Assembly: GCA_021163845.1 (NCBI GenBank)
Contig: JAGGTH010000078.1
Span: 2,607-66,606, forward strand
Length of the DNA stretch: 64,000 nucleotides
Reading direction: 5' to 3'
Source: Helicobacteraceae bacterium
GTDB taxonomy: Bacteria; Campylobacterota; Campylobacteria; Campylobacterales; Sulfurimonadaceae
The notes under the pieces were generated by a model, which worked only from the letters and a program-made list of their open reading frames with translations, did no database searches and had not been told where the DNA came from. The position numbers and the translations under genes are program-made. Shown piece by piece: positions 2,237-51,520 of the stretch; the first letter of the stretch is position 1; each line of letters starts with the position of its first letter.

Positions 2237-2265
2237 CTTACCGAAGGCAAGCCATTGGCTCCTTA
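2237..2265. repeat. REP/BIME-like repeat, copy A (single arm)
   Basis: CGAAGGCAAGCCATTGGCTCCTT at 2242-2264 is the reverse complement of the left-arm region at 43796-43818; intergenic. Confidence 0.8.
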
Positions 2266-2279
2266 ATGTTATGCTATGC

Positions 2280-2831
2280 CTATTGTAACACCTTCACAAT
2301 CGCTTCGGGCATGATCTCATACTCAAGCGTCTTGATCTTTGCTACAAAGCTCTCGTAATCTTGCTCATCTTCACGTACAAAGCTTTTTTGCAAAATGATC
2401 TCTCCCCCATCAAGCTCATTATTAACCCAATGTACACTCACACCACACTCCCTATCACCACTCTCATAGCTCTGTTCTATCGCTTTTGCACCCTTATATT
2501 TTGGAAGCAAAGAGGGGTGAAGATTGATCGAGTTTACTTGGGATGTAAACACCTCTGTGAGAATTCTCATAAAGCCACTGAGTACAACCAGATCAGGTTC
2601 ATAAGACTTTATCAAAGTCACAAGTTCTTCGTCAAAAGCCTCACGCGAAGCAAAGTTGCCATGTTCGAGCACGCGACATTCTACATCCAAAGCTTCTAGT
2701 TTTACGATACCCGGGGCATCTTTTTTGTTTGTGATCCCACACACCACTTCACACTCTTTTTTGTGAAGTTGCTTGACAATATTCTGGGCATTGCTACCCT
2801 CACCACTAAATAAAAGTACGATTTTTTTCAT
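2280..2831 (-). CDS. purN: Phosphoribosylglycinamide formyltransferase
   Basis: LFSGEGSNAQ, VLSGFMRIL, INLHPSLLP, VHWVNNELDGG. Confidence 0.96.
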   Translation of the reverse strand: MKKIVLLFSGEGSNAQNIVKQLHKKECEVVCGITNKKDAPGIVKLEALDVECRVLEHGNFASREAFDEELVTLIKSYEPDLVVLSGFMRILTEVFTSQVNSINLHPSLLPKYKGAKAIEQSYESGDRECGVSVHWVNNELDGGEIILQKSFVREDEQDYESFVAKIKTLEYEIMPEAIVKVLQ

Positions 2832-2856
2832 ACGAAATTATAGCAGATAAAGAGCT

Positions 2857-2890
2857 ATGTAACCTTTTTGTAGCCAAGAATACCTACAAT
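2857..2890 (+). promoter_or_regulatory. Pho-box-like direct repeat plus -10 element
   Basis: TGTAAC (2858) and TGTAGC (2869) are 11 bp apart; 10 nt later comes TACAAT (2885-2890). Confidence 0.6.
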
Positions 2891-2919
2891 TTTCAAACTT
2901 ATTAAAAGGCAGAGAATCA

Positions 2920-3663
2920 TTGAAATATAAAGCACTCTTTATTTCAGACATCCACCTAGGAACAAAGTTTTCTCAAGCAGAAAAACTTCTCGAATTTCTC
3001 CGTGATTATGAATCCGAAAAACTCTATCTCGTCGGAGATATTATCGATGGTTGGTCGATCAAACGTAAATTTAAATGGTCACAATCCAATTCCGATGTGA
3101 TCCAAAAGATACTTCGAAAAGCGCGAAAAGGGACAGAGGTGATCTATATTACGGGAAACCATGATGAGTTTTTACGCCCCTTTATTCCTATTTTAATGGG
3201 GGAACGGCTTACTATTACAAATAGTCACATCCATACAACACAAGACGGCAAACGCTACTATGTGACCCACGGCGACTTTTTTGATAGCATCACTATGACC
3301 AAAAAATGGGTCACCTATCTTGGTGATGTAGGCTACGATATGCTTTTACACCTCAACAAATACATCAATAAATTGCGCAAAATCTTAGGGATAGGCAAGT
3401 ACTGGTCGCTCTCAAAGTATGTCAAAGATAATGTCAAAAAGTCGGTAAGTTTTATTACAGGATTTGAAGATATCTTGGCAACTCATGCGCAAAAAGAGGG
3501 TTTTGATGGTATCATTTGTGGGCATATTCACAAAGCTGAAAATAAGATGATCGACGGGATCCACTATCTCAATTGTGGAGATTGGGTAGAAAATTGCACC
3601 GCAGTCGCTGAGGGAGAGGATGGAGTATGGGAGATAATCCAACTACAACCAAATCAACACTAG
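2920..3663 (+). CDS. LpxH-like metallophosphoesterase, PlcP-type phospholipase C candidate
   Basis: Motifs FISDIHLG, LVGDIIDGW, QKILRKARKG, GNHDEFLR, HGD, YWSLS, CGHIH and NCGDWVENCTA match the PlcP/UDP-2,3-diacylglucosamine hydrolase-like subfamily as I recall it; TTG start. Confidence 0.8.
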   Translation: MKYKALFISDIHLGTKFSQAEKLLEFLRDYESEKLYLVGDIIDGWSIKRKFKWSQSNSDVIQKILRKARKGTEVIYITGNHDEFLRPFIPILMGERLTITNSHIHTTQDGKRYYVTHGDFFDSITMTKKWVTYLGDVGYDMLLHLNKYINKLRKILGIGKYWSLSKYVKDNVKKSVSFITGFEDILATHAQKEGFDGIICGHIHKAENKMIDGIHYLNCGDWVENCTAVAEGEDGVWEIIQLQPNQH

Positions 3664-4403
3664 AGATAGCACTTGCTCTCTCAGGTGGAGCTGCACGTGG
3701 CTCTTTTCATTTAGGCTTTATCGAAGCGCTACAAGAAAACAATGTGCGCATCAAAGCGATCAGCGGTACAAGTGCTGGTGCCATTGTTGGAGGGGCCATT
3801 GCTTGTGGTCTCAAACCTCGTGATGTACTTGAAGTTATCAAATCTAGAGCATTTCGTCGTATCTTTCGCTTCAACTGGTTTCGAAGTAGCCTCTACCGTA
3901 TCGATACACAAGCTCCTATTCTTCAAACCATCTTTCCTCTTGAAAAAATTCAAGAGACTCGTATCAAACTTTTTGTTTGTGTGAGTGATCTTAACAGTAA
4001 TGAAGTGGTCTATTTTCAAAGAGGAGATGGGAAAAAACTCATCACTGCTTCGTGTGCACTTGTTCCCCTTTTTGCCCCTATAGAATTTTATGATTCAATA
4101 CTCGCCGATGGTGGGATCAAGGATATGCTTCCAACCACTCCTCTTTTGGAGTGTGGCTATCCAATCCTTGGGATCAATCTCGTCCCCAATATCTTGCCGC
4201 AAAAGCGCAATATCTTTTCTCTGAGTCGCCACATTATCCATATCTTACTCTCGTGTAAAGTTCCCGAACATATCAAGCATACACGCTGGTATGTCTCACC
4301 TGATGCACTCGAGAGTATTCGGATGTTTTCTTTTAAGGATCTTGATAAGGGGTTTGAGCTGGGCTATCTTCATGGCAAAGCGTGGTGCGATGAAAATTTA
4401 TAA
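3627..4403 (+). CDS. Patatin-like phospholipase
   Basis: LSGGAARG, GTSAG (catalytic Ser) and DGG motifs; exact start uncertain because it overlaps the upstream gene. Confidence 0.9.
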   Translation: MGDNPTTTKSTLEIALALSGGAARGSFHLGFIEALQENNVRIKAISGTSAGAIVGGAIACGLKPRDVLEVIKSRAFRRIFRFNWFRSSLYRIDTQAPILQTIFPLEKIQETRIKLFVCVSDLNSNEVVYFQRGDGKKLITASCALVPLFAPIEFYDSILADGGIKDMLPTTPLLECGYPILGINLVPNILPQKRNIFSLSRHIIHILLSCKVPEHIKHTRWYVSPDALESIRMFSFKDLDKGFELGYLHGKAWCDENL

Positions 4404-4426
4404 GTAATATAGGGTATAATTGCACT

Positions 4427-5389: not shown

Positions 5390-6174
5390 TCCGACTCAAC
5401 AAATATATAGCACACCATTCAAGTTACTCTCGTCGTGAAGCAGACAAAGCGATCCAAAGTGGATACGTACGCGTCAACGGTGAGATAGAAGAAAATCCAG
5501 CGACACAGATAGATGAAAATGATGTCGAAGTATACATCAGTGGAAAAAAGGTCGCACCTCGCGATAAATATACCGTGATCGTATACAACAAACCAAAAGG
5601 GGAGCTTGTCACAAAAAGTGACCCCAAAGGGCGCCGCACCATCTACGATAGCTTAGAGAAAAAATACAAACATTTTATCCCTGTAGGAAGACTCGATTAT
5701 GCAACAGAGGGGGTTTTACTCCTTACTGATGCGTCTAAGATAGCAACAGCACTTATGACATCCAACCTAGAGCGTATCTATAAGGTCAAGATCAAAGGGG
5801 AGATCACTCCTCAGATGGAAGAGGCGATGTTAAATGGCCTTGAGCTTAAAGATGCAACAGCAGGAGCACATGAAAAAAGCAAGATCACCTCGATGACCTT
5901 TGCACCATTTTTGGGCTATAAGATCCAAAAAAATGCACACAACTATTCCACCCTCAAAATCGCGATCGCTGAGGGACAAAACAGAGAGATCAGAAGATTT
6001 TTCGCCCACTTTGGAGCAGAGGTGGCGGATCTCAAACGTATCAGCTTTGCCGAGATCGAGCTCAACAACCTCCCTACGGGAAAAACAAGATTTTTAACAC
6101 GTGGTGAGTATAACGCACTGCACACATTTATAAAAGCAGAAGAAAAAAAAGCAAAAGAGAGAGGTCATAAATAG
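5386..6174 (+). CDS. rRNA pseudouridine synthase, RluB/RsuA family with S4 domain
   Basis: N-terminal S4 domain (RLNKYIA, SRREAD) and GRLDYATEGVLLLT catalytic motif. Confidence 0.9.
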   Translation: MIRLNKYIAHHSSYSRREADKAIQSGYVRVNGEIEENPATQIDENDVEVYISGKKVAPRDKYTVIVYNKPKGELVTKSDPKGRRTIYDSLEKKYKHFIPVGRLDYATEGVLLLTDASKIATALMTSNLERIYKVKIKGEITPQMEEAMLNGLELKDATAGAHEKSKITSMTFAPFLGYKIQKNAHNYSTLKIAIAEGQNREIRRFFAHFGAEVADLKRISFAEIELNNLPTGKTRFLTRGEYNALHTFIKAEEKKAKERGHK

Positions 6175-6573: not shown

Positions 6574-6576
6574 GTC

Positions 6577-7758
6577 TTGGCAGATTTTACCCATCTGCTT
6601 CGCCCCAAATCTTTTGATGCGATAGTGGGGCAAGAGCACCTTACATCCCAAGGCGCTCCTCTTCGTATTCTTTGTGAACAAGGCAATCTTGGGCACTCTT
6701 TTATCTACGGTCCAGCAGGATGCGGCAAAACCTCTTTGGCACGTGTGATCGCTTCTGTTATGGAACTCCCCTTTTATGAATTTAACGCAACATCACTCAA
6801 GATAGAACAGCTTCGCAAGATCTTTGATCAATACAAAAATGCATTGCAAAGACCACTTTTATTTATCGATGAAGTGCACCGTTTGGCAAAGAACCAGCAA
6901 GAGGTGCTTTTGCCTGTGATGGAGAATAATAGTGTCTTGGTGATCGGTGCTTCGACCGAAAATCCTTTCTACTCCCTCACCTCTGCGATCCGCTCACGCT
7001 CGATGCTCTTTGAGGTAAAACATATCAGCAATGATGCACTCCACGCACTCCTAGAGACTACATCCCAAGCTCATAATATCACCATAGATAAAGAAGCAGC
7101 GGAGTATCTCGTGGCAAGTAGTGGTGGCGATGCACGTGCGATGCTCAAGCTCTTAGAGTTTGCAAGCAACCTCTCTTTGGATGTAGATCTCAAGACCCTC
7201 AAATCACTTCGCCCCCATGCTCTGAGTGCTGGAAGTAGCGAAGCGGGAGTGCATTATGACTTAGCCAGTGCGCTTATCAAATCGATTAGAGGGAGTGATG
7301 CAGATGCAGCTATCTATTATCTCGCACGTCTTATTGATGGAGGTGAGAGCGCTGATTTTATCGCACGAAGATTAGTGATACTCGCAAGTGAAGATATCGG
7401 CAATGCCAACCCTCAAGCACTCACACTCACCACATCCGCACTTACATCCGTGAGTAAGATAGGCTACCCAGAAGCGCGTATCATTCTCGCTCAAGCGGTG
7501 ATCTACCTCTGCGCCTCCCCCAAGTCAAATTCCGCCTATATGGCGATCAACTCTGCCTTGCAAGCAGTACATAATGGAGTGATGCTAAATATCCCAAAAA
7601 ATATACAGCACAATAAAGAGAACTATCTCTATCCACACGATTTTGGTGGCTATGTGAAGCAACAATATTTAGAAAAACCCTTGAAGTTTGTAGCGTTTAA
7701 AGAGATCGGTTATGAGAAAAAAATGAAAGAGTGGCTTGAGGCGATACGAGGGATGTAG
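6577..7758 (+). CDS. rarA: Replication-associated recombination protein A (AAA+)
   Basis: GPAGCGKT, LFIDEVHR, GASTENP, LIKSIRGSD, ASEDIGNA, YLYPHD; TTG start. Confidence 0.94.
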   Translation: MADFTHLLRPKSFDAIVGQEHLTSQGAPLRILCEQGNLGHSFIYGPAGCGKTSLARVIASVMELPFYEFNATSLKIEQLRKIFDQYKNALQRPLLFIDEVHRLAKNQQEVLLPVMENNSVLVIGASTENPFYSLTSAIRSRSMLFEVKHISNDALHALLETTSQAHNITIDKEAAEYLVASSGGDARAMLKLLEFASNLSLDVDLKTLKSLRPHALSAGSSEAGVHYDLASALIKSIRGSDADAAIYYLARLIDGGESADFIARRLVILASEDIGNANPQALTLTTSALTSVSKIGYPEARIILAQAVIYLCASPKSNSAYMAINSALQAVHNGVMLNIPKNIQHNKENYLYPHDFGGYVKQQYLEKPLKFVAFKEIGYEKKMKEWLEAIRGM

Positions 7759-7800
7759 GCTTTCACGACACTCCAGAGCGAAGGTAAACCATCGCTTTGG
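7750..7800. repeat. REP/BIME-like repeat, copy B (degenerate; overlaps the rarA stop codon)
   Basis: GGGATGTAGGCTTTCACGAC...GAGCGAAGGTAAACCATCGCT aligns with linker 1 plus the right arm of copies E and G. Confidence 0.75.
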
Positions 7801-7808
7801 AGAAACTC

Positions 7809-8651
7809 TTAATCGAAAAAGCTTCCTGCACTTAGATAAAAGAGCACTGTTTTATCTGCATCTATTGTTGTTCCAAACGAACTTATTTCATTGACAAGAG
7901 GGATCTTTACCCCAAAACCAAGCGGTACATTTTTTAAGAGACTCTGAGTGTTCCACTCTAACCACACATCCGCTGTTGTTATCCCATTCATCTCGTACTC
8001 ATTCTCTTTCATATTAAAATAGGCAAATTTCACATTGGTACGAAGTTTATCATTGAGTAAACATGGTCGAGATGCACCGAGCATTACATTGTAAGAGTCC
8101 CCAAGAACCTCTTCATCATTGAAGGTATAGGACGCTAATGCATGGCCTCTAAAATCTGCACCAAGCTCTTTTGTGAAGCTATGTGAAAGAGTATATGCAG
8201 CTTTTCCTGTTCCTAGCCCTTTCTCTTCATCCCCCGACGTACTTTTATAGCGTAATGTTGTCAAATGCAATCCACTCGCACTCTTATAACTTCCAAAGTG
8301 GTAGTTCATCCCTACAGAGATATCACCTATTCCTCTCTGGGTATCAGCAAAATCACTCTTAACTTGCACAAAAGGAATATTTGCCTCAAGCCCTATATTA
8401 TTAGTAATGTTGTACCCTACTGGGATATTGAGTATGGACACATCCCCATTATTAATATACTGTGCCGAAGCCATCGCAGTATGCGTTCCAAGGGCAAAAT
8501 CACTCCTAACATTAGAAACTGTTATGTCATTGACCGTCGTCTGCTCTGCCACAATGACAGCATCTGTGTTCTCTTCTGAGAAGTGGGGCATATACGGTTC
8601 TGCTAAAAGTGCGACACTTGCAAGTGTGGTTGCTACAACAATTTTTTTCAT
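7809..8651 (-). CDS. Outer-membrane beta-barrel protein, transporter/MetA-pathway-like
   Basis: Signal peptide, amphipathic strands, GIGDISVG and GLGTG motifs, near-terminal Phe. Start moved to MKKIVV, which follows a GGAG site. Confidence 0.65.
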   Translation of the reverse strand: MKKIVVATTLASVALLAEPYMPHFSEENTDAVIVAEQTTVNDITVSNVRSDFALGTHTAMASAQYINNGDVSILNIPVGYNITNNIGLEANIPFVQVKSDFADTQRGIGDISVGMNYHFGSYKSASGLHLTTLRYKSTSGDEEKGLGTGKAAYTLSHSFTKELGADFRGHALASYTFNDEEVLGDSYNVMLGASRPCLLNDKLRTNVKFAYFNMKENEYEMNGITTADVWLEWNTQSLLKNVPLGFGVKIPLVNEISSFGTTIDADKTVLFYLSAGSFFD

Positions 8652-8811
8652 CTTTTTCTCCATTTCATATTCTATGCTTCAATTGTAATTTTTTTTATCT
8701 TAAAAAAAGGTATATGGAGGATGTGACACAGCTTTAGGCTATAAGGATTTTTTTGGTTTAGTATGAACTGAAGTCCGTGTTACACGGGTTGGTTGAAGTT
8801 TGTGTTATGGG

Positions 8812-11909: not shown

Positions 11910-12014
11910 ACTCCCCTCCAGATACCTGCGGCACACGACGAAATAAGGCGTGCTGCTGTATTCCTACCCTGACACAGTATCTCAAAACACCGTTGCACAG
12001 GTCTAAAGGGAAGC
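11910..12014 (-). ncRNA. ffs: Signal recognition particle RNA (bacterial small SRP/4.5S)
   Basis: Minus strand has the domain IV signature UCAGGGUAGGAAUACAGCAG, GUGUGCCG, and a closing stem GCUUCCCUUUAGA/UCUGGAGGGGAGU followed by UUUU; TATAAT at 12021-12026 sits 7 nt upstream. Confidence 0.9.
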
Positions 12015-40300: not shown

Positions 40301-41860
40301 ACCTCCTTCACAACTATCTTCTTCTACTATATCTCGAACAGGTTCACCTCCAACCTTTGGGCTAAATGGAGCTTGCATCTGAGTTTGACCTGTTGCGTTG
40401 CTATTGTTGTGAAAGTCTGTAGCGCCACCTATACACTCGATATCTCCACTACATCTTGGATCTGACTGTGCTGCGTAGCCACTACCACCACTGTAGCCAC
40501 CGCCACTTCCACTGTAGCCACCACTACCGCCACCGCCGCCTGAAAAGCTGTATCCTCCAGAAGAACCGGAAGAAAAAACAATCGCTTTTGGAGGGGTAGG
40601 ACTTGGCGTATGGTTTACAGGTGGGCAATTTGGAGCTACAGATGGAGCAATAAAAAATGCGGATGAGCCTCCCGTAGCGTCGCCTCCATCTTCCTCTTCA
40701 TCATCTGTATCATCATCTTCCTCATCTTCTCTATACACTTTTATGTTAGAGACATGCCCCAAGTTGATATCTGATTTGCTCTTGATAGTAAAAAGCATCG
40801 AGTCACTTGCCCCTGGTGTTCTCGTCACAAGTTCTACGGTAAGCGGATAGATAGATGGATCATCAAAGATCTCAGCACTTGAGTCTTTTGGCATGATAGA
40901 TACTCCAAAAGTTCCTGGATAGATAGTCGCTTCACTTCTTATATGAAAGTGTTCAAAGGGTTTACATGTATCTTTTACATCTACGCTTCCTGCATCCCAA
41001 CCTACATTGAGATCCAGATCTACCTCCTCATTGTCCCACTTGAGGCTTATCTCTACTACTCCGCTGTTTGGTATCGGAGGAGGTGTATAATGTTCCTTGA
41101 AGTGTTCGATAGCATACTCAGGAAAACTGTCTATTTTATATTTTGAAACACTATTTTGATTACGATAATATTCAAAAAAATGAAACTTGTAATGAGCCAT
41201 ATCTAAGCCTGCTACGTTAAATCTTTCAGAGTTAATTATATTTGCACTCATGCTTGATGGCACAAAAGTTATGGGATCATTATCTAAGGTAGCCAAAGCA
41301 CCTCTTCCCTCATCCATACCGCTTACATGATCAGCTGGATTTGCAGTGCCTAGCATATAAAATGATCTTTGTTCGCATGGGCTTAAACTATCATATACTT
41401 CATTCGTAAAAAAGTTACCTTGAGAGTGGGCTATGACGATTACTTGATTTCCTGCATTTATGCTTGCTTTATAGGCTTCTTTTTGAAGGCTCAAATCAGC
41501 ACCATGATTTTTACTGACTCCACTATAGTAATCTATATAGTGCTGGGTTAATCTGCTGTGTGTTAAAGTGATAAAACTATTCCAATAAATACTCCAGCCG
41601 TTTTGGTCAAAAAGTTGTGCAGCTCCCTCTATGAAGTCCCAAAAACCACTTGTGGTATTATAAGCGGATTTGAAAGATTGGCTTTCGTAAATTTCTGGAT
41701 TAGAGTCTATTAGGTCTTCTTGTAATGCATCACGAGCCTCATCTGTCGAGTCTTTGTCGGTTAAAACTCCTGTAGCAAGGTAGATATCTGCGTTTGCATG
41801 TAGAGAACTTGTGCTAAAAAGACAAAGAAGGAAAATAAGAAATAACTTTTTCATTCCCAT
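34301..41860 (-). CDS. Giant secreted protein: lipase-like domain, linker, cadherin-like repeats and two 7-repeat LVIVD propellers
   Basis: Signal peptide; AHSQG nucleophile elbow; repeated cadherin motifs (LDYE, FTID.G.I, A.N..G); 14 repeats of TLSADGTKAYVAD..SGLQIID. Confidence 0.9.
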   Translation of the reverse strand: MGMKKLFLIFLLCLFSTSSLHANADIYLATGVLTDKDSTDEARDALQEDLIDSNPEIYESQSFKSAYNTTSGFWDFIEGAAQLFDQNGWSIYWNSFITLTHSRLTQHYIDYYSGVSKNHGADLSLQKEAYKASINAGNQVIVIAHSQGNFFTNEVYDSLSPCEQRSFYMLGTANPADHVSGMDEGRGALATLDNDPITFVPSSMSANIINSERFNVAGLDMAHYKFHFFEYYRNQNSVSKYKIDSFPEYAIEHFKEHYTPPPIPNSGVVEISLKWDNEEVDLDLNVGWDAGSVDVKDTCKPFEHFHIRSEATIYPGTFGVSIMPKDSSAEIFDDPSIYPLTVELVTRTPGASDSMLFTIKSKSDINLGHVSNIKVYREDEEDDDTDDEEEDGGDATGGSSAFFIAPSVAPNCPPVNHTPSPTPPKAIVFSSGSSGGYSFSGGGGGSGGYSGSGGGYSGGSGYAAQSDPRCSGDIECIGGATDFHNNSNATGQTQMQAPFSPKVGGEPVRDIVEEDSCEGGLSCKCIPCEYEIIPLKKQANYGPIRGADFSIYTLDGYRTQSSIYDGVTSYGETLYDAGEVDIPQGILETLEDEIFYVIKVQGGEDIDRDDDFTIDTIPTQNLGKAYALIKGEDIKNTGFKINILTTVAFTLLEDMIQKDATAQQLEEKIKEIASRLLRYKIYPQSEELNISNEDLIAWLPAIDKDLLLQFYEPLDAMVEKIYANESIYEEAYEYVYLKSSDDNSTQTVVDEYKPPIIKTFVSSIPEDAVGGTILGSIEILRGSEDLTFASLSGKGSELFTIDASGEIKLKEDAKLDYETKWLYKLKAEAINKNGSSGKVGVYISVKDIVDAPIFVSYEAQKISEDAKPGDTVGKITFDKGAAPIAAIEMQGESTDLFDITIDGTITVAQGASFDYESKYSYGFVVIAKNSYGNSMPAIVYINIDDVADSPKVTDYKGGYIHEDATSGSVVGEVIFDKGGAEIDSITLEGAGSQNFSIDIDGIVRVAPNAALDYESYNFYILTVHLSNTYGMASQNIFISVIDTLDVPSFVSFSGGNVKENAAVNTVVGQIVFDTGSVPIESVSLLGDSSGAFKILDNGTILVAKNILDYEQKNHYVLQATATNAFGSSQVVEVHIFVDDILERAVVLDDFVVNDIAENVAIETILGNIEILDNGSGAIYEYEIIGDKKEYFHVDAQGVVRTAKTLNFETDPEYKLKVKARNEAGWSYGVNLIVRLKDVVDEKPSFSASSIYFDVFENDDSIGKIDFHAGDSPVTSLTLSGTGSEKLSLDPSGDLRVKAGNILDYDRGQRYFGLSVTATNTAGSSSIPIEINVLNIQDIPEIYDVNLSTVFANITVDSIIGQINFHTGDSPLTHVELNGDDAHYFDVDTNGTIRIKTVLESFELKKTYDFTVAFVNSSGESLPKDIKVELLGQGELPIINNFQATVNENLVAGSIVGQIEVVSHGDAPIDGYHLEDTSQFVIDANGTIKVAPLAVLDYEKQHFIHLMVQASNVVGLSDPKYLHISLNNLIDTPPTLRDLNISINKEIAIGSIIGNLLLDKGDGIITEFSFSNSPFFTLEKNGNIKVSNSLLEQDDTHFELHATLTNSFGISNEAIVRITLITTPVLDDSSLKAFDNSTALIQIGKLPIIKNGNDIQSISLSGDGSSDFTVETDGVIRVAQGVTLQASRQDYYDLTVLINEMYEATLTINVHHRIIGSFDTPDTAWSVTLSADGTKAYVADGGSGLQIIDVGDPTAPTKLGSFDTSDYANGVTLSADGTKAYVADGWSGFQIIDVSDPTAPTRIGSFNTPGYALDVTLSADGIKAYVADGGSGLQIIDITDPTALITLGSFDTSGYANGVTFSADGTKAYVTDGGSGLQVIDVSDPTAPIRLGSFDTPNNVYGVTLSADGTKAYVADYNSGLQIIDITDSTTPTRLGSFNTPGYALDVTLSADGTKAYVADDSSGLQIIDITDPITPILLASINTPNYAWGVTLSADGTKAYVADRNSGLQIIDVSGFNVEQKVPSIKGFSSVIEASLVEGSFIGAVKIYYTGESGITSFRLDGERAEDFSIDQEGRISLAKQLEARADNIYTLKAIATNSIGERETDVTIRVHSIPEIKPFSKTINSMTPPDTLVGKLEMLVDDNTTISYIALSGEGSEYFYINSSGEIYVSEEAELHHFVKADYELEVTAINSYGSNDFPISINIKALVASFDTSRAQYVTLSADGTKAYVADYNSGLQIIDITDPATPTHLGSIDTPSYAYGVTLSADGTKAYVADGGSGLQIIDITDSTAPTRLGSFDTPGSTQDVTLSADGTTAYVADYNSGLQIIDIIDPATPTHLGSFGTPSYAQSVTLSADGTKAYVADSWSGFQIIDVNDPTAPIHLGSFDTPGSAVDVTLSADGTKAYVADYQSGVHIIDITDPTSPTRLGSFDTPGYAQDVTLSADGTKAYVAHGTKAYVANSYSGVQIIDITNPTAPTKLGSFDTPSNAQDVTLSADGTKAYVADHQSGLQIIDLTGLN
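34304..35233 (-). repeat. LVIVD-type ~132-bp coding repeat block 2 (7 units)
   Basis: Seven ~44-aa units; unit 6 carries a 24-bp internal duplication. Confidence 0.9.
35813..36718 (-). repeat. LVIVD-type 132-bp coding repeat block 1 (7 units)
   Basis: Seven 44-aa units GSF.T..YA..VTLSADGTKAYVAD..SG.QIID..DPT.P. Confidence 0.9.
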
Positions 41861-43224
41861 TCACCATCAATTACTTTACTTTCATTAAAATCACAACTCT
41901 CTTTATATTTAGATCTATCACGTGCGGGGTAAACACCTCCACTTAAGGCTTGATTATATTCATAATAAGCACGATTTCGTTCTCGTGTATTTAGCATTAG
42001 TGGTCTTGATTCTTTATGTAAACTTGTTCCTCTTGGAATAAGTTTTCTTTCATCTTGATACATATAATATGATTGACAATCTAGTCGAGCCTCCATAAAC
42101 TTAGTGGTTTCCCTCGCCTTAGAAGGATCCACAAGAATTATCTGAAACGCTCTGGCATTCTGCATAGCAACAGCTTGGACTATCGGCTCATCATACTCTT
42201 GATATACCCACCTTTCCACATCATCCCTAACACCATTATCATTTGTGTCAATTCCAAGAAGAGTAGAGTTATTTACAATTGGGTCTGGCTCAGGTGGAAG
42301 TCTGTGTCCGTTTATCTCTTTGTAGATCTCTAAGGCTACTGCGTTTGAAGTGATGTTTTGGAGCGAAGCTTGGATGAAGATGTTTGTATCTTTATGAAAG
42401 GTTTTTAGTATATTGTTTTTTATATCTATAGCTAGCTTATCTGTATAGATCCACTCTACTTCATTTGTAACATCTTTTGTGCTGTTGTCGCTATAAGTTG
42501 CTACTACTTTGAGTGTTGTATTTGTATCTACATTGAGTGAGTTTTTCTCTAGGGTGAGTTTGAGAGATTTGAGACTTACTGTAGGCTGGGTGGTGTTTGT
42601 CTCTGCTGTGGTGTTTGTTTCATTGGTCGTTGTGTTGGTTTCATTGCTTTGTTCTTCTAGTTCCACCTCTTTCGAGCTGGAATTAACAACCTCTGCAACC
42701 TGCTCTGCTTCCACCTCTCCTGAGGTGGAATTCATATCGGTATCACTCGCTTCTGTAACCTCCTCCTGTGGGGCAGGAAGCGTATCGGTACTCTCTGCTA
42801 CATCATTTTCCTCTTCCGCTTCTTCTTGCTGCTCTGGTTCCATCTCTAGTGGGGTGGAACCCGTATCGGTACTATCTTCTACAGAAAGTTTAGGATGCAC
42901 TGTAATATGCACCTGCTTTTTAAGTGTAAGATTCTTCTCTTGGATCTGTGCCGTAACCGCTTCAAGTTCAAATACCAAAGTCTCTTGCATTGCAACATCT
43001 GGAGCGATAAAACTAGGTGTCGCACTGTTTGCACCTACAAGAATAACAGAAGTTCCGCTTAACTGTCTCCAACTATAAGCTTGTGCTCCACTTGCTTGAA
43101 GATCTACTTTCTCTCCAGAAGAACTTGTAATGTTTGTTTCAACTTGAAGTGTTTCTTTGTCTGAGTTACATCCGAAGAAAAGGAATGTGAGAAGAAGTGT
43201 AAGTGTAAAAGGGAGAAGTTTCAT
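41851..43224 (-). CDS. Lipoprotein: PKD-like domain, acidic linker, Big-2-like domain, C-terminal PPEPDP/GIDxNxNGVRDD domain
   Basis: Lipobox FFGC; YSWRQLSG..PSFIAP; ATYSDNSTKDVT; GIDTNDNGVRDDVE; stop overlaps the start of the giant gene. Confidence 0.8.
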   Translation of the reverse strand: MKLLPFTLTLLLTFLFFGCNSDKETLQVETNITSSSGEKVDLQASGAQAYSWRQLSGTSVILVGANSATPSFIAPDVAMQETLVFELEAVTAQIQEKNLTLKKQVHITVHPKLSVEDSTDTGSTPLEMEPEQQEEAEEENDVAESTDTLPAPQEEVTEASDTDMNSTSGEVEAEQVAEVVNSSSKEVELEEQSNETNTTTNETNTTAETNTTQPTVSLKSLKLTLEKNSLNVDTNTTLKVVATYSDNSTKDVTNEVEWIYTDKLAIDIKNNILKTFHKDTNIFIQASLQNITSNAVALEIYKEINGHRLPPEPDPIVNNSTLLGIDTNDNGVRDDVERWVYQEYDEPIVQAVAMQNARAFQIILVDPSKARETTKFMEARLDCQSYYMYQDERKLIPRGTSLHKESRPLMLNTRERNRAYYEYNQALSGGVYPARDRSKYKESCDFNESKVIDGEWE

Positions 43225-43341
43225 AAGAGAACCTTTGTGAGTGATGTTTTTAGTTGTTATTTATTGTAGTTTATCAAAACTTTCACTTAGGTTAAAGTTT
43301 GTTTTATTTTAATTATATTTGTATGTCTCTTTCCGTTTTAC

Positions 43342-43410
43342 CTTGGATGTAGAATTTTCATGAAAGCTCAGAGCGAAGGCAAGCCATCCCTTCCAAAAGA
43401 GGTGGAACGA
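43342..43410. repeat. REP/BIME-like repeat, copy C
   Basis: CTTGGATGTAG..TTTCATGAAAGCTCAGAG, right arm CGAAGGCAAGCCAT (43374-43387), then CTTCCAAAAG. Confidence 0.85.
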
Positions 43411-43712
43411 GGAAGTGATATTTTTATTTTGAAACTGTACTGTCACCGCTTCAAGTTCAAACACTAAGCTCTCTTGTCCAGTCACACTAGGAGTAATAAA
43501 ACTAGCCGTAGCTTTGTTTACATTGACAAAGATAACATCTGTTCCACTTAACTGTCTCCAGCTATAAGCCAAAGCACCGCTTGCTTGCAACTCAACCATA
43601 TCCTCTGAATATGCTGTGAGATTGGTATCGACTTGAAGTGATTCTTTGCCTGAGCTACATCCCAAGAAGAGAGTTGTTGTTAGAAGTGTAAAAAGAGGTG
43701 AAGAAGTTTCAT
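43411..43712 (-). pseudogene. Frameshifted, truncated paralog of the 41851-43224 lipoprotein
   Basis: ASGALAYSWRQLSG..LVFELEAVT matches the neighbour. ATG at 43712 is out of frame with the LGC lipobox unless one base is added, for example in the A5 run at 43690-43694. Homology stops at repeat copy C. Confidence 0.8.
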
Positions 43713-43746
43713 GAGAGATCAGAACGAAGACAAGTACTCAAGGGTG

Positions 43747-43892
43747 CGAGCATAAACCATCGCTTCCAAAAGAGAAGCAAAGATTCATGACATAAAAGGA
43801 GCCAATGGCTTGCCTTTGGCAGAAAGTGGCTTGGGATGTAGGGCTTTTATGACAGTCAAGAGCGAAGGCAAGCCATCGCGTCCACAAAAGAG
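43747..43892. repeat. REP/BIME-like mosaic, copies D+E (arm R, linker 2, arm L, linker 1, arm R)
   Basis: Degenerate arm 43747-43760; 44 nt; ATGGCTTGCCTTTG 43805-43818; 44 nt; CGAAGGCAAGCCAT 43863-43876. Confidence 0.9.
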
Positions 43893-45465: not shown

Positions 45466-47136
45466 ATGCGCACACTCTTTCTTTTTTTTCTTTTGCTAAG
45501 CTCTTTGCTTGCAGACCAAGAACTCAAATCTCAGATCGCACGTATGCTCATCTTAGGCTTTGATGAACATACAATAGATGAAAATTCCAAAATCACCAAA
45601 ACACTCCAAAAACACATCCTCGGCGGAGTAATCCTTTTTGATAGATTTTATGATGATCGTGACAAGATAAAAAACATAAGCTCGCCAGAGCAAGTTCGAG
45701 CCCTTACATCCCAGCTTCAAAACTACGCACAAAAAAGACTCTTTATCGCTATCGATCAAGAAGGTGGAAAGGTAGCACGCCTTAAAGAGCGCGATGGCTT
45801 TGCCCCTGCCCCTTCTGCTGCATCACTCAAATCGCAGAGTGCTGCAGAGAGTACAAAAGTGTATGACACCCAATCGCAAATGCTTCAAGACCTAGGAATA
45901 AACCTCAACTTCGCTCCTGTAGTCGATCTCGCCTTAGAGCCAAAAAACAAAGTGATCTACGCCCTAGAACGCTCTTATGGCAAAGAGCCTTTCGATGTAG
46001 CAAAATTTGCCAAGATCATGATCGATGCCCAAGAAAAACACAACATCATCTCGGTGCTCAAACACTTTCCAGGGCATGGCTCTTCGCTAGCAGATTCTCA
46101 CGAGGGCTTTGTTGATATCACCAATACATGGCAAGAAAAAGAGCTCGAACCCTACAAACAGCTGATACAAAACGGTGATGCGCAGATGATTATGAGTGCA
46201 CATGTTTATAACAAAAAGCTCGATGCAAAGTACCCTGCCACTCTTTCCAAAACAATCAATACAAAACTTTTACGCCAACAGCTCGGCTTTAAAGGAGTGC
46301 TTGTAAGTGATGATCTACAAATGAAGGCGATTAGCGAACACTACTCACTCAAAGAGGCTGTGACACTCGCGATCAACTCGGGGGTCGATATGCTCCTCTT
46401 TGGCAATCAACTCGCACACAACAGTGCCGATGAGATCGTAAATACCATCTATGCACAGATAAAGAATGGCTCGATCTCACACGAGCGTATCACCGAGGCT
46501 AACAAGCGCATAGAGCATCTTATCACTGGCTCGCGTATCATCCAAAAGCCTATTACATTCAAGCAAGAACGCATAGAGATGACAAAGCGCTACATCCAAG
46601 AGCACTATGCTTTGGATGTAGAAGATATACAGATCACGCCTAAAGTGATCGTACTGCATTGGACGGCGATCATGGACTTTGAGAAGTGTTTTTCTCTTCT
46701 AGAGCCAGAGCATCTGCTCTCACACCGTAGTGATATCTCAGACGCAGGCGCGCTCAATGTCTCAGCACACTTTTTAGTCAAACGAGATGGCACGATCTAC
46801 CAGCTTATGCCAACTGACTCGATGGCGCGCCATGTAATAGGTCTGAACTACTCAAGTATCGGTATCGAAAATGTCGGCGGTGAGGGAAATGTCAAAGAGG
46901 ATCTCACCCCTGCACAAGTTGAGGCCAATATCGCTTTAGTGAAATACCTCAAACACCAATACCCCCAGATCGAATACCTCATCGGGCACCACGAATATTT
47001 AGAGATGCAAGATTCACCCCTTTGGCTTGAGAAAGACCCAAACTATCGCACTGACAAAGCAGACCCAGGGGAGAGCTTTATGCAAGCGGTGCGCTCAGAG
47101 CTCAAAGCCTTAGAGCTTAAGGGTGTTCGTGAGTAG
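45466..47136 (+). CDS. GH3 beta-N-acetylhexosaminidase (NagZ-like) fused to an Amidase_2 N-acetylmuramoyl-L-alanine amidase; exported
   Basis: Signal peptide; IDQEGG, KHFPGHG and SDDLQM; C-terminal LHWT, SAHFLV.RDG, HVIG.N..SIGIE and GHHE. Confidence 0.9.
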   Translation: MRTLFLFFLLLSSLLADQELKSQIARMLILGFDEHTIDENSKITKTLQKHILGGVILFDRFYDDRDKIKNISSPEQVRALTSQLQNYAQKRLFIAIDQEGGKVARLKERDGFAPAPSAASLKSQSAAESTKVYDTQSQMLQDLGINLNFAPVVDLALEPKNKVIYALERSYGKEPFDVAKFAKIMIDAQEKHNIISVLKHFPGHGSSLADSHEGFVDITNTWQEKELEPYKQLIQNGDAQMIMSAHVYNKKLDAKYPATLSKTINTKLLRQQLGFKGVLVSDDLQMKAISEHYSLKEAVTLAINSGVDMLLFGNQLAHNSADEIVNTIYAQIKNGSISHERITEANKRIEHLITGSRIIQKPITFKQERIEMTKRYIQEHYALDVEDIQITPKVIVLHWTAIMDFEKCFSLLEPEHLLSHRSDISDAGALNVSAHFLVKRDGTIYQLMPTDSMARHVIGLNYSSIGIENVGGEGNVKEDLTPAQVEANIALVKYLKHQYPQIEYLIGHHEYLEMQDSPLWLEKDPNYRTDKADPGESFMQAVRSELKALELKGVRE

Positions 47137-48613
47137 TAGTTTTGCCCCACTTGATTGGCTTGTGTTTGGGCTCTATTTTGCCCTTTTAGCCCTCTCTTCA
47201 TGGTGGCTCTCACGCCATAAGATAAGCTCTTCGCGCGAGTATTTTCTAGGGGGCAACCAGATGGGGATCTTTGCCGTCGCCCTCTCAGTGCTTGCGACAT
47301 CCCAATCAGCCGCGACCTTTTTAGGGGTACCCGAATATGCCTATAAAAATGACTTTAGCTTTATCGGTTTTTATCTCTCAGCACTTCTAGCAGCGCTCTT
47401 TATCGCTTATGTATTGCTCCCAAAGTTTTATGAGCACAAGGTTGTCACCGTCTATGAGCTCCTCGAATCACGCTACGGAGAGAGTGCCAAAAAAAGTGCG
47501 GGGGTGATGTTTTTGCTCGGGCGTATTTTAGCGAGTGGAGCACGTTTGTATATTGGTGCTTTAGCGGTCTCGATGATCCTCTTTTTTGACACCTCCGCTT
47601 CTCATGTCGCGCTCTCAATAAGCCTCTTACTTTTGGGAGCTCTTGCTTATACCTATTTTGGCGGAGTACGCTCAGTGATCCTTAGCGACGTACTTCAAGC
47701 TTTTGTATATATCGGTGCTGGGGTTCTTGTGCTTGTTTATCTCTACTTCTCGCTCAACCACCTCGATATCTTTACTCTCCTCGCAGAGGAGAACAAGCTC
47801 TCTCTTTTTCAAGAGAGTTTTGAAGGCAACTTTAGTATCGCTTCACTTCTCACAGGCTGGCTCTTGCTCAATATCGCCGCTTTTGGACTTGACCAAGATA
47901 TGACACAAAGACTTTTGAGTTGCAAAAACAACAAAGCCGCTGCCAAATCACTCCTGATCTCTATTGCTCTGAGTATCCCTGTGGTGCTTTTGTTTTTATC
48001 TATCGGTGCCCTACTCTATCTTTTTTATGCTCATAGCTCTATTGAGCAAAATTTTGAGGGGCAAAGCATCACCATCTTTATGTACTATATCTTGCACGAG
48101 ATGCCAGAGGGCTTGCGCGGGCTTGTCACCGTAGGTGCGATCGCTGCAGCACTCTCTAGTACCAACTCTGTTTTGGGTGCGATGGCTTCTGTAGCCGTTG
48201 AGGATCTTTATAAGCCCTACATCCAAAGCAAAGGAGATAAAGAGGATAGCCATTTTATCAAAGCCTCACGCTTTGCCGTTTTGGGTTTTGCTCTGATCTT
48301 GGGAGTGATGGCATTGTTGAGCTACTACTGGCAGAAGCACAGCGGTGTGGGGCTTGTCACCTTTGCTCTTGGGGTGATGGCATTTGCGTACACTGGGCTT
48401 TTAGGGGTGTTCTTTGCCGCTCTCTTTAGTAAGCGAGGCAATAGCACCTCGGTACTGTTTGCTCTTTTGGGCGGTTTTTTGACCGTGCTCTTTTTGCAGC
48501 CTTATATTTTTGGGCTCACAATAGGCTACGCGTGGCAGATAGTATTGGGAACCTTAGTTGCTTTTGGTATTGTACTATTAGGAAATAAAGCGAAAGGCAA
48601 GCTTGGGATGTAG
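47123..48613 (+). CDS. Sodium:solute symporter (SSS family)
   Basis: About 13 transmembrane helices; YFLGG, SVLATSQSAATFLG, GLDQDMTQR, AAALSS. Confidence 0.9.
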   Translation: MFVSSSFAPLDWLVFGLYFALLALSSWWLSRHKISSSREYFLGGNQMGIFAVALSVLATSQSAATFLGVPEYAYKNDFSFIGFYLSALLAALFIAYVLLPKFYEHKVVTVYELLESRYGESAKKSAGVMFLLGRILASGARLYIGALAVSMILFFDTSASHVALSISLLLLGALAYTYFGGVRSVILSDVLQAFVYIGAGVLVLVYLYFSLNHLDIFTLLAEENKLSLFQESFEGNFSIASLLTGWLLLNIAAFGLDQDMTQRLLSCKNNKAAAKSLLISIALSIPVVLLFLSIGALLYLFYAHSSIEQNFEGQSITIFMYYILHEMPEGLRGLVTVGAIAAALSSTNSVLGAMASVAVEDLYKPYIQSKGDKEDSHFIKASRFAVLGFALILGVMALLSYYWQKHSGVGLVTFALGVMAFAYTGLLGVFFAALFSKRGNSTSVLFALLGGFLTVLFLQPYIFGLTIGYAWQIVLGTLVAFGIVLLGNKAKGKLGM

Positions 48614-48712
48614 AGCTTTCATGAGAGCACTTGAGCGAAGGCAAGCCATCGCTTCCAAAAGCGGTAGAAACTTTCTTGAGAACAAAGGAACCGATGGCTT
48701 GCCTTCGGTAGA
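48592..48712. repeat. REP/BIME-like mosaic, copy F (linker 1, arm R, linker 2, arm L)
   Basis: CTTGGGATGTAG 48602; CGAAGGCAAGCCAT 48636-48649; 44 nt; ATGGCTTGCCTTCG 48694-48707 (perfect inverted pair). Confidence 0.9.
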
Positions 48713-48753
48713 GCACGCTGAAATAGCGCAACTTTAATAACAAAAGGGAGAGT

Positions 48754-49830
48754 ATGAGTAAACTCTATATCGGTGTAATGAGCGGTACGAGTCTTGATGG
48801 GGTCGATATCTCTTTATGCAGAATTGGTGCCGATACTATCGAAGAGATCCGTTCAAAAGCCTATCCATTTCCTAGTGAACTCAAAGAGGAGATACTTGAA
48901 GCGATAAATACTCAAGTAACCCTAGAACAACTAGGTACACTTGATCATAAACTCGGACTTTTATATGCCCAGACTCTTACAAGTTTTCTACAAAAGTACG
49001 CACTGACAAGTGAATCTATTTGTGCCATCGGTTTACACGGTCAAACCCTTTGGCACGCGCCTGAGAGTGTCAATCCATTTACAATGCAACTCGGTGATGC
49101 AAACCTTGTCGTGGCTGCGACAAATATAAAGGTGGTAGCAGATTTTAGACGAGGAGATATCGCAAACGGTGGACAAGGTGCACCCTTTGCACCCGCTTTT
49201 CATCGTGCCATATTTAAAGAGAAAAACTGCGCCGTACTCAATATCGGCGGCATGGCAAACATCACTCTTTTGGGTGAGAACTATCTTGGATATGACACCG
49301 GATGTGGGAATGTTTTACTTGATTATTGGGCGATGCAGAGTCTTGGTGAGCCTTATGACAAGGAGGGAAGATTTGCCGCGAGTGGTGAGGTGATAGAGGA
49401 GCTTTTAGACGCGATGCTTAATGATCCTTACTTTGCCAAAAAGCCTCCAAAAAGTACTGGTAGAGAGTATTTTAACAGCACGTGGCTTGCAAACTTCATG
49501 CCCCTTTTTTCAAGCTACAAAGATGCGGATGTGCAAAGAACCTTACTCGAACTCACCGCAAAGAGTATCGCAAATGAGATCAATCACTTCGATGTAGCAG
49601 AAGTCATCGTATGTGGCGGAGGGGTGCAAAATAGCTTTTTGATCCAAAGGCTCACACAGCTTTGCAAGGCAGATGTCGTCTCAAGCGATCACTATGGCGT
49701 GAGTTCTGAGTTTATGGAAGCGATGGTCTTTGCGTGGTTTGCCTATAAGCGTATCCATAATGAGCCTGTTGATCTGCGCACCATCACAGGGACGAGAAAA
49801 AATTCCCTTTTAGGAGCGATCTATGGATAA
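48754..49830 (+). CDS. anmK: Anhydro-N-acetylmuramic acid kinase
   Basis: GVMSGTSLDGVD, HGQT, DFRRGD..GGQGAP, NIGGMAN, KSTGRE. Confidence 0.96.
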   Translation: MSKLYIGVMSGTSLDGVDISLCRIGADTIEEIRSKAYPFPSELKEEILEAINTQVTLEQLGTLDHKLGLLYAQTLTSFLQKYALTSESICAIGLHGQTLWHAPESVNPFTMQLGDANLVVAATNIKVVADFRRGDIANGGQGAPFAPAFHRAIFKEKNCAVLNIGGMANITLLGENYLGYDTGCGNVLLDYWAMQSLGEPYDKEGRFAASGEVIEELLDAMLNDPYFAKKPPKSTGREYFNSTWLANFMPLFSSYKDADVQRTLLELTAKSIANEINHFDVAEVIVCGGGVQNSFLIQRLTQLCKADVVSSDHYGVSSEFMEAMVFAWFAYKRIHNEPVDLRTITGTRKNSLLGAIYG

Positions 49831-50773
49831 GATCAAGACTTGGCTCGATGGTACTGAGTATAAAGAGTACTCCATCGAAATAGCCTCTGCAGATGCGAGT
49901 TTTCGTAAGTATTATCGGCTGAGGGGAAAAGGTGAGAACACCTTTTTACTTATGGATGCCTCTTTAGAAAAAGAGTCCCTCCATCCCTTTCTAGATGTCA
50001 CCCAAAGGCTCCATAAGGTAGGCGTGCTCGCCCCTCAAATCTACAAGCAAGATCTCCAAGAGGGCTATCTCATCCTAGAAGATTTTGGCGATACCAATCT
50101 CCTTTCACAGCTTACGCAAGAGAGTTTTGAAGCCCTTTACATCCAAGCGATCGAGCAGATCATTTTGATGCAAAAAGCAGATACAAAAGGATTGCCACTC
50201 TATGACAAGGATTTTTTACATTTTGAAATGGATCTCATGGGCGAATGGTACTTGCAAAAACTCTTGGGATGGTGCCTAGATGAAGCGCAACAAAAGCTTT
50301 TAGCGCAAACTCTTGATACTATCAGCGAAGTGGTGCTCTCCCAGCCCCAAGGTGTTTTTGTTCACAGAGACTTTCACTCGCGCAATATTATGCTTACATC
50401 CCAAGGTGCTTTAGGGATCATCGACTATCAAGATGCAATGTGTGGCGCGCTCACTTATGATCTTGTCTCACTGCTCAAAGATTGCTATATCTCTTATGAG
50501 CGTGAGAAGATAGAAAAACTCGCTCTTATCTTTCGTGATAAAAAAGGCTTGGATGTAGCAGATGAAGTGTTTTTAAAATGGTTTGATTTTATGGGACTAC
50601 AACGCCATATCAAAGTACTAGGGATCTTTTCACGCCTTTGGCTTCGTGATGGCAAAGAGGGGTATTTGGGCGATATTCCACTCACCCTCTCTTATGTGCG
50701 AGAGACCGCTTCAAGATACAAAGAGACTGAGGATTTTGCAAAGATGCTAAAGGATCTCACATCAAAGCAATGA
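49823..50773 (+). CDS. amgK: N-acetylmuramate/N-acetylglucosamine anomeric kinase (APH fold)
   Basis: DASFRKYYR, LEDFGD, HRDFHSRNIM, IDYQDA, YDLVSLLKD, GIFSRL..RDGK; directly upstream of murU. Confidence 0.88.
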   Translation: MDKIKTWLDGTEYKEYSIEIASADASFRKYYRLRGKGENTFLLMDASLEKESLHPFLDVTQRLHKVGVLAPQIYKQDLQEGYLILEDFGDTNLLSQLTQESFEALYIQAIEQIILMQKADTKGLPLYDKDFLHFEMDLMGEWYLQKLLGWCLDEAQQKLLAQTLDTISEVVLSQPQGVFVHRDFHSRNIMLTSQGALGIIDYQDAMCGALTYDLVSLLKDCYISYEREKIEKLALIFRDKKGLDVADEVFLKWFDFMGLQRHIKVLGIFSRLWLRDGKEGYLGDIPLTLSYVRETASRYKETEDFAKMLKDLTSKQ

Positions 50774-51417
50774 TCTTAGCAGCGGGGCGCGGTGAGCGGA
50801 TGCGTCCCCTGACTGACACCACCCCAAAACCACTCTTACAGGTGCGAGGTAAGGCGCTCATCGAGTGGCATATAGAGAGACTCAAAGCGTATGGATTTCA
50901 TGAGATCATTATCAATATAGCCCATCTAGGAGAGCAGATCCAAGAATATCTGGGAGATGGTTCGCGCTATGGTGTAGCAATTCTCTACTCAGATGAGAGA
51001 CAAAGCGGTGCGCTAGAGAGTGCTGGAGCGATCATCAAAGCGCTCCCGCTTTTGGGTAAGGAGCCTTTTTTGGTAGTCAATGGTGATATCTTTTGTGACT
51101 ATACTTTTGATCCCCATTTTGAGCTTCATGGCAAACTTGCACACCTTGTTTTGGTGCCCAACCCCCAACATAACACAAAAGGGGATTTTAGTATCCAAAA
51201 CAAAGCTTTGATTAACCAAGGCAAAGTACAATACACTTTTTCGGGGATCGGCTACTATTCGCCTAAGCTTTTTGAAAATCTAGCCTTGCAAAAAATGCCC
51301 CTTGCACCTCTTTTACGTCAAGGGGCGGATGAGGGTTGTATAAGTGCCGAGCTTTATGATGGGATGTGGCATGATATTGGCACGCCACAGCGACTAGAAG
51401 CGATCAACACCAAGTAA
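50770..51417 (+). CDS. murU: N-acetylmuramate alpha-1-phosphate uridylyltransferase
   Basis: ILAAGRGERMRPLT..TPKPLL, LESAG, NGD, W.DIGTP.RL; paired with amgK. Confidence 0.88.
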   Translation: MILAAGRGERMRPLTDTTPKPLLQVRGKALIEWHIERLKAYGFHEIIINIAHLGEQIQEYLGDGSRYGVAILYSDERQSGALESAGAIIKALPLLGKEPFLVVNGDIFCDYTFDPHFELHGKLAHLVLVPNPQHNTKGDFSIQNKALINQGKVQYTFSGIGYYSPKLFENLALQKMPLAPLLRQGADEGCISAELYDGMWHDIGTPQRLEAINTK

Positions 51418-51520
51418 AGAGCCAATGGCTTGCCTTTGGCAGGGAGTGGGCTTGGGATGTAAGGCTTTTATGACAGCTCAGAGCGAAGGCAAGCCATCGC
51501 CTCCTAAAGCGGTAGAGACT
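51418..51520. repeat. REP/BIME-like mosaic, copy G (arm L, linker 1, arm R, part of linker 2)
   Basis: ATGGCTTGCCTTTG 51425-51438; CTTGGGATGT 51451; CGAAGGCAAGCCAT 51484-51497. Confidence 0.9.

Follow-up and report, generated by a model that had tools for sequence, protein, structure and literature searches.

A REP family with REPIN-like doublets and a probable cognate RAYT in a Sulfurimonadaceae genome

Described REP/RAYT systems and the present family

The partnership between repetitive extragenic palindromes (REPs) and REP-associated tyrosine transposases (RAYTs) has been studied almost only in Gammaproteobacteria. In the Escherichia coli system, a RAYT flanked by REPs forms the arrangement known as the REPtron (PMC2817692, Nunvar 2010; PMC6006769, Quentin 2018). 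Specifically, a single-copy HUH-Y1 gene (yafM, encoding TnpA-REP; structure 4ER8) occurs with two REP types, Y and Z2, which alternate with two kinds of linker in the bacterial interspersed mosaic element (BIME) BIME-2 and are dispersed behind genes (PMC2817692, PMC3479197). Here we analyze a family of inverted 14-base arms found in a 64,000-nucleotide stretch (the window, G000:C3:2607-66606) of the Helicobacteraceae genome assembly GCA_021163845.1 (2.24 Mb, 113 contigs, 39% G+C), which resembles the E. coli system in each of these respects and also in the best fold match of its protein, 4ER8. We read these arms as a REP family organized in doublets like the REP doublets forming hairpins (REPINs) and in short BIME-like arrays, together with a cognate single-copy RAYT, a TnpA-REP-like HUH Y1 protein, and we give this reading a probability of roughly 85%. 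It would extend the REP/REPIN-RAYT partnership to free-living sulfur-oxidising Campylobacterota.

Other described systems share further traits with the family. The REPINs of Pseudomonas fluorescens, with their group 2/3 RAYTs (PMC3116915, PMC5581495), resemble it in that doublets outnumber singlets (19 against 7 here), a doublet can form one long hairpin, each REP family has one RAYT, and the same locus is kept in a close relative. They differ in that the present family has two doublet geometries, with heads outward or heads inward, much smaller populations and no near-identical copies that would point to recent activity. REPs without GT[AG]G are on record for TnpA-Y1 subclass 2.6 and class 3 (foot CnGA), where, as here, a RAYT-like gene is flanked by such hairpins and the hairpins also occur elsewhere in the genome (PMC6006769). 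The insertion sequences (ISs) of the IS200/IS605 group (IS608, ISDra2) share the HUH-Y1 fold and the recognition of sub-terminal hairpins in single-stranded DNA (ssDNA) through a short 5′ guide, but here both TnpB and a multi-copy element are absent, and the hairpins have spread without the gene, which is single-copy.

Taken together, the RAYT gene flanked by inverted REPs, the covarying palindrome, the dispersal of the repeats, the single copy of the RAYT, the BIME-like alternation and the excess of REPIN-like doublets over singlets describe a system that works like, and by its context belongs with, the REP/RAYT systems.

Hairpins, doublets and their placement

A preliminary description of the window, made from its sequence, had located the arms, reported that they alternate at a spacing of about 44 nt, and placed all loci at gene ends or between genes, and each of these observations is borne out. 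The arm ATGGCTTGCCTTYG or its inverse, at ≤2 mismatches, has nine matches in the window (starts at 2242, 7779 with two mismatches, 43374, 43805, 43863, 48636, 48694, 51425 and 51484), against 0.74 expected and a count that none of 100 shuffles reached. The gap between arms is 44-45 nt for the pairs 43805/43863, 48636/48694 and 51425/51484, the locus at 43737-43892 indeed reads R-linker 2-L-linker 1-R, and all window copies lie at gene ends or are intergenic. Nor are the arms limited to the window, as the whole genome contains 35 exact copies, 59 with ≤1 mismatch and 70 with ≤2.

Each arm forms the centre of a small palindrome of its own, that is, a REP. On the head strand the unit consists of 5′-NGGA(A/G) followed by a 20-nt imperfect hairpin, which is made up of a 4-5 bp outer stem, a T.T mismatch, a 3-bp GGC/GCC inner stem and a TT loop. 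Two outer stems predominate, AGCGA...TCGCT (type A, 23 copies) and GCCAA...TTGGC (type B, 18 copies), and the rarer ACCGA...TCGGT and GCCGA...TCGGC are likewise complementary. The E. coli REPs differ in that their head is GT(A/G)G and their hairpin longer and more GC-rich. The arms themselves being hairpins headed NGGA(A/G), the preliminary proposal that GTAG and a small palindrome in one linker form the RAYT substrate has to be abandoned.

The hairpin is maintained by selection, via compensatory changes across species. We aligned 38 distinct REP variants from about 15 genomes, relatives that are not independent samples, and found pairing in 91.8% of cells as compared with 79.5% after shuffling. 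Double changes occur in 38 cells against 14 in shuffles (0/500 shuffles reach 38) and at five of the eight pairs, and sliding the 3′ partner as a control reduces pairing to only 30-49%. The inner-stem variants GCC..GGC, GAT..ATC and GCT..AGC all remain complementary, and repair of the T.T mismatch to a G-C pair also keeps the hairpin. Since columns 7 and 26, which form the outermost pair, frequently do not match, the real stem comprises 4 + 3 bp. GGA is invariant at columns 4-6, immediately 5′ of the stem.

REPs of types A and B alternate in inverted orientation, in arrays of up to five REPs. With unit ends set by alignment of 13 linker-1 and nine linker-2 doublets, the core-to-core distance genome-wide is 59-62 nt across linker 1 and 55-57 nt across linker 2. 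Linker-1 doublets have their heads outward around a linker of about 45 nt, within a conserved block of ~108 nt that runs from AAGGAGCC... to ...CGCTTCCAAAAG, whereas linker-2 doublets have their heads inward around a linker of about 44 nt that is palindromic around CATG. Both linkers had been described as conserved, which is true of linker 1, where 10 of 13 genome copies have a CTTGGGATGTAG-like sequence at a fixed position, and less so of linker 2, whose 22-mer has only two matches at ≤3 mismatches; the constant part of the latter is CGCTTCC (the end of the REP stem plus head) and a TTTCATGAAA-like centre. As ssDNA, the linker-2 doublet at 48625-48720 is predicted to form a single long hairpin with a folding energy of -26 to -27 kcal/mol (z about -6.3 to -6.5; 0/200 shuffles as stable), and the segment 43795-43895 likewise a long hairpin, of -17.4 kcal/mol; linker-1 doublets reach -14 to -18 kcal/mol, with z about -2. 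The loci of the window are as follows.

2238-2264, minus strand: single REP, GGA head and 20-nt hairpin, with a hybrid B-type stem (exact arm 2242-2255), between the minus-strand open reading frames (ORFs) 1440-2192 and 2280-2831.
7747-7800, plus strand: decayed half unit consisting of the right half of linker 1 (GGGATGTAG...) and an A-type REP with two core mismatches and its head lost, between the convergent ORFs 6577-7758 (+) and 7809-8663 (-).
43341-43400, plus strand: half unit consisting of the right half of linker 1 and an A-type REP (arm 43374-43387), located where the remnant of a lipoprotein paralogue has its 3′ end.
43737-43892, plus strand: BIME-like array of a degenerate third-type REP (43747-43764), linker 2, an inverted B-type REP (43805-43818), linker 1 with a 12-mer (43830-43841) and an A-type REP (43863-43876).
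48590-48712, plus strand: REPIN-like linker-2 doublet preceded by the right half of linker 1, with a 12-mer (48602-48613), an A-type REP (48636-48649), linker 2 and an inverted ACCG-type REP (48694-48707).
51418-51520, plus strand: linker-1 doublet followed by the start of linker 2, with an inverted B-type REP (51425-51438), a 12-mer variant in linker 1 (51451-51462) and an A-type REP (51484-51497).

The degenerate arm at 43747 represents a third type of REP-like module, a weaker one (GCGAGCATAAACCATCGC), which occurs at two further places in the genome. At several of these loci the repeats mark the ends of genes and account for odd stop codons and gene remnants in the window. ORF 47123-48613 has its last codons and its TAG stop in REP-associated sequence, the TAG being supplied by the 12-mer at 48602-48613, and the TAA stop of a murU-like gene (51415-51417) directly abuts the REP head of the doublet that begins at 51418. 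The lipoprotein gene remnant (43309-43720, minus strand) is paralogous to the N-terminus of ORF 41851-43224, has a frameshift after its start codon, and lies between two REP loci, its 3′ end running into the REP at 43341-43400.

Arms of 14 bp in inverted orientation, separated by about 45 nt, look at first like a small foldback MITE (miniature inverted-repeat transposable element), and the preliminary description had kept a MITE-like origin as its alternative. On such an account the arms would be MITEs or ordinary IS remnants, the terminal inverted repeats left by a DDE transposase. The aligned doublets show no target-site duplication at the unit ends, with flanks that are random directly outside the heads; singlets and alternating arrays occur, and not pairs alone; each arm is its own covarying palindrome; and the only gene bracketed by the arms is the single-copy Y1 HUH gene considered below, with no parent or DDE element found. 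We therefore regard this explanation as exceedingly improbable.

With respect to distribution, the census of the genome comprises 56 REPs at 29 loci, all of them intergenic and spread over more than 20 contigs, in the form of 19 doublets, seven singlets and three longer arrays; by all counts the genome holds about 56-63 arm or REP copies, and a check of the contig ends revealed no further copies hidden there. Gene context was scorable at 28 of the 29 loci, with statistics that rest on a crude selection of ORFs. Fourteen of these loci lie in convergent, 14 in tandem and none in divergent spacers, the genome-wide numbers being 231, 1438 and 204, respectively. Convergent spacers thus hold 14/28 REP loci as compared with 231/1873 of spacers genome-wide, a 7-fold enrichment (Fisher p = 1e-6).

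The RAYT gene and its relatives

The preliminary description had further supposed that the REP/BIME-like system is served by an HUH nuclease encoded outside the window, and the test it had suggested supports this, as a search of the whole genome with Pfam Y1_Tnp (PF01797) located a fitting candidate. The one intact match (45 bits) is a 173-aa ORF at G000:C10:37285-37806 on the minus strand, with the motifs MPNHVH and YEYIKHNP. Five REPs lie directly downstream of this gene (L001/L042) and four upstream, which is the REPtron arrangement. A second Y1 match, on contig C1 (L002:1336-1841, equal to G000:C1:50099-50604), was rejected as a part of the system, being decayed and of another subfamily; it is split by stops, has no recognisable HUH motif and lies about 1.9 kb from the nearest REP.

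The 173-aa protein scores 74.4 bits with NCBIfam REP_Tyr_transpos as compared with 31.3 bits with the IS200 model. Among 30 homologues N92, H93 and H95 (the HUH motif), W130, Y134, Y149, Y151 and N155 are invariant. Its AlphaFold2 model (pLDDT 89.9) has as best fold match in the PDB 4ER8, the structure of the E. coli RAYT in complex with a REP hairpin (E = 2.3e-7), which ranks ahead of the ISDra2, IS200 and IS608 transposases; identity to the E. coli protein is ~14% in the structural alignment, and the host here is a campylobacterotal genome of 39% G+C. A single-sequence search of the PDB retrieved the ISDra2 transposase alone, and weakly, and a profile search additionally reached 4ER8. Since sequence by itself slightly favours IS200/IS605, we base the assignment as a RAYT chiefly on the REP context, together with the NCBIfam contrast and the ranking of the folds. 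In terms of the published classification (PMC6006769), the motifs NHVH, FW[AE] and YIK[NH]NP with an HUH-Y spacing of ~58 aa fit no signature exactly in a comparison of signatures; subclass 2.6 has a spacing of 82 and occurs in Bacteroidetes, and class 3 has Y...Q.

A metagenomic relative (L081) encodes a RAYT that is 84% identical and occupies the same chromosomal place, beside the same malic-enzyme gene and with an Lnb_N-like gene on its other side, flanked by the same alternating arrays. The B-type stem there is GCCG/CGGC as compared with GCCA/TGGC here, a compensatory pair of changes. Only this relative shares neighbouring genes, as the genes within 1.5 kb of the RAYT have no match at ten more distant orthologous loci. 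Exact arm copies also occur in about 15 other metagenome-assembled genomes (MAGs) of Sulfurimonas, Sulfuricurvum and Helicobacteraceae, and an exact 21-mer of arm plus tail is found only in MAGs of Sulfurimonas, Sulfuricurvum and 'Helicobacteraceae', among which the present genome can therefore be placed. Six of ten arm-bearing MAGs have an orthologue of the RAYT (46-58% identity) and a seventh has a fragment, and in five of them (L054, L055, L056, L057 and L062) the RAYT is bracketed by the same REP family. Counting L081, this family brackets the Y1 gene in six other Sulfurimonas assemblies.

The REP family is nonetheless patchy, and relatives with orthologous RAYTs use other hairpins. Among 120 sampled genomes of the bacterial family, the exact 15-mer of the arm occurs in its own genome and once in G117, and nowhere else. 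In other genomes, different hairpin classes bracket orthologues that are 46-52% identical; two such RAYT-bearing genomes, G068 and G104, hold 24 and 55 copies of their own class, whereas two RAYT-less congeners hold 3-5, the level of a reversed-pattern control. In Sulfurovum, Lebetimonas and the zetaproteobacterium Ghiorsea, the hairpins that flank the homologues again differ in sequence, and each has a GGAG or GGAA head; the class found in G123/L058 has no obvious GGA head. The RAYT is single-copy, each orthologue has its own REP class, and the REP class changes together with the RAYT orthologue. These at least ten hairpin classes, most of which retain the GGA(A/G) head, form a natural series and a compact test bed for how HUH-Y1 enzymes read a hairpin and its guide. 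The head itself, common to most classes of a RAYT clade, is the most interesting feature of the system. In the Ghiorsea homologue (L145:1000-1239), two of its own GGAA-headed hairpins sit in frame within the 3′ portion of the RAYT, whose protein is ~40 residues longer, and insertions of this type are also present in P0081 and P0103; similar REP insertions within the RAYT ORF have been described for subclass 2.4 (PMC6006769).

The preliminary description stated that no such system was known in this lineage, which is correct insofar as we found, among searchable papers, none that links RAYT or REPIN with Sulfurimonas or Campylobacterota. It overlooks that the JGI pipeline already labels homologues 'REP element-mobilizing transposase RayT' and that a published study (PMC3733652) reports GTAG and CGTC repeats from Sulfurovum.

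Evidence of turnover comes from the spacer between the murU-like gene and mltB, which contains the doublet at 51418-51520. A short contig of metagenomic origin (L082) carries the gene for a MurU-like protein with 91% identity to that of the window, and the sequence on either side of the spacer is about 95% identical. Its spacer of roughly 115 nt contains in place of this doublet one of a different REP family (TACAGGCTAAAGCCTGTGTTA ... TAACACGGACTTCAGTCCGTA), and its murU-like gene ends two codons later, on TGA. In more distant relatives murU and mltB abut or overlap, without a spacer. REP doublets therefore appear to come and go at gene ends, by a mechanism that the murU-mltB comparison does not indicate. 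The comparison of occupied and empty sites that the preliminary description had proposed consequently yields an exchange of doublets and no clean empty site at that identity; empty sites for the REP-bearing region of the window were also sought in Sulfurimonas sp. BF2_25 (G123), which returned REP matches only and no synteny. A second REP family, CGTAACACRGRCTTYAGYCYGTA, is present in the genome of the window in about 25 copies, mostly inverted doublets, without a cognate RAYT. Its sites include C15:4605-4650, C16:1659-1705, C17:21146-21210 and C28:1326-1390, as well as L058:1170-1500 and L082:1205-1290; in Sulfurimonas sp. BF2_25 it brackets a RAYT (46% identical), and some of its spacers carry the 12-mer.

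Several observations weigh against our assignment to the REP/RAYT systems. The copy number of ~60 is below the >100 typical of classical REPs and the several hundred of E. coli, and neither REP type adjoins a GT(A/G)G head, in the form of either GTAG or GTGG. No two copies are identical, and doublets are only 83-92% alike, so there is no direct sign of movement; among strains of high identity, none were found that differ by an occupied as against a cleanly empty site. Three of the ten arm-bearing MAGs lack an orthologous RAYT and a fourth has a short fragment only, these four being incomplete assemblies in which one or two REP copies were seen. Finally, the NCBIfam score lies just under the curated cut-off of 80, and the profile search scores IS200/IS605 proteins slightly better than 4ER8, to which the sequence is no closer.

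Part of this evidence would suit repeats selected by the host. The REPs could be structural elements, such as 3′ mRNA-stabilising or terminator hairpins or protein-binding sites, that were spread by recombination or duplication, with the Y1 gene a chance neighbour. The bias toward gene 3′ ends with its enrichment in convergent spacers, the stability of the hairpins and the divergence of copies that show no recent burst are what such elements would display. The hairpins are not followed by T runs, however, as a terminator scan found no T-tailed hairpins at the REPs, and no Rfam family matches the repeats at gathering or E-value thresholds. Moreover, at least seven genomes have the Y1 gene bracketed by the repeats, with the repeat class switching together with the orthologue, which is unexpected for a chance neighbour. 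Taken as a replacement for a REP/RAYT partnership we consider this account quite unlikely; a host role and RAYT-driven spread are compatible with each other.

With respect to mechanism in the proposed REP/RAYT system, we infer RAYT catalysis, the cleavage site and any host function by analogy. As for E. coli TnpA-REP, the RAYT would bind the folded hairpin with its head on ssDNA at the replication fork. It would then cut nearby and rejoin the strand, such that REP doublets would be excised and re-inserted in trans while the RAYT gene stays put. The elements would persist downstream of genes, where they are presumably harmless, and the REPs may secondarily serve as 3′ mRNA hairpins.

The 12-mer of linker 1

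The GTAG on which the preliminary description had focused lies in linker 1, about 22 nt from the hairpin, and belongs to a second signal that had been merged with the REP family and can now be separated from it. Among the 10- and 12-mers of the genome, the oligomer CTTNGGATGTAR shows the strongest over-representation, with 42 sites in the window between 421 and 63472. Its GGATGTA core occurs 1855 times against about 290 expected (an estimate from base composition), with 914 and 941 copies on the two strands, and the flanks hold no information beyond 12 nt. The form TTNGGATGTAR has 617 copies, 90% of them inside ORFs and in five of six frames. A reading of the CTTGGGATGTAG matches as lipoprotein lipoboxes was rejected, since only 26 of the 617 are in the lipobox frame. 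Sulfurimonas sp. BF2_25 and the relative with the 84%-identical RAYT are likewise rich in the 12-mer, which is rare in the other species that share the REPs, where linker 1 reads differently while arms and spacing are kept. Because it is genome-wide, mostly genic and absent from the linker 1 of other species, GTAG is not a conserved foot of the REP family. It is part of a lineage-specific oligomer contained in the local master copy (10/13 linker-1 doublets).

In its density, strand balance, multi-frame genic copies and random flanks, the 12-mer behaves like a DNA uptake sequence, a resemblance that rests on its distribution. This raises the possibility that the units are carriers of an uptake-like signal, in which the 12-mer CTTGGGATGTAG is the functional part and the arms are a terminator-like frame, comparable to the paired uptake sequences of Neisseria. 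Such a view would be in line with the status of the 12-mer as the most over-represented oligomer, equally on both strands and with ~0.8 GGATGTA cores per kb, and with its fixed place in linker 1. It is very improbable as an explanation of the repeats, given that about 98% of 12-mers lie outside REP units, most of them in ORFs and in several frames, that species without the 12-mer retain the REP arms and their spacing, and that linker-2 doublets carry no 12-mer.

A more speculative proposal, unlikely as it is, joins the two signals within a REP/RAYT system. The GGA(A/G)-headed REPs might form a separate tag class beside GTAG and CGTC, served by a RAYT clade of Campylobacterota and Zetaproteobacteria whose head recognition would be unlike that of E. 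coli TnpA-REP, and in this Sulfurimonas lineage the REPIN master copy might have captured the uptake-like 12-mer and thereby gained preferential uptake. If true, the spread of elements within genomes would be coupled to their spread between cells. In practical terms, the repeats could also serve in the typing of Sulfurimonas strains.

Two minor observations complete the analysis. A small contig (G000:C111:1-1000) consists of a (GAYACW)n repeat that encodes Asp-Thr runs and includes about 20 GGATGTAG, which slightly inflates the oligomer count. The only match to Rfam at the gathering threshold in the window is a bacterial small signal recognition particle RNA (RF00169, 61.7 bits) at 11912-12009 on the minus strand.

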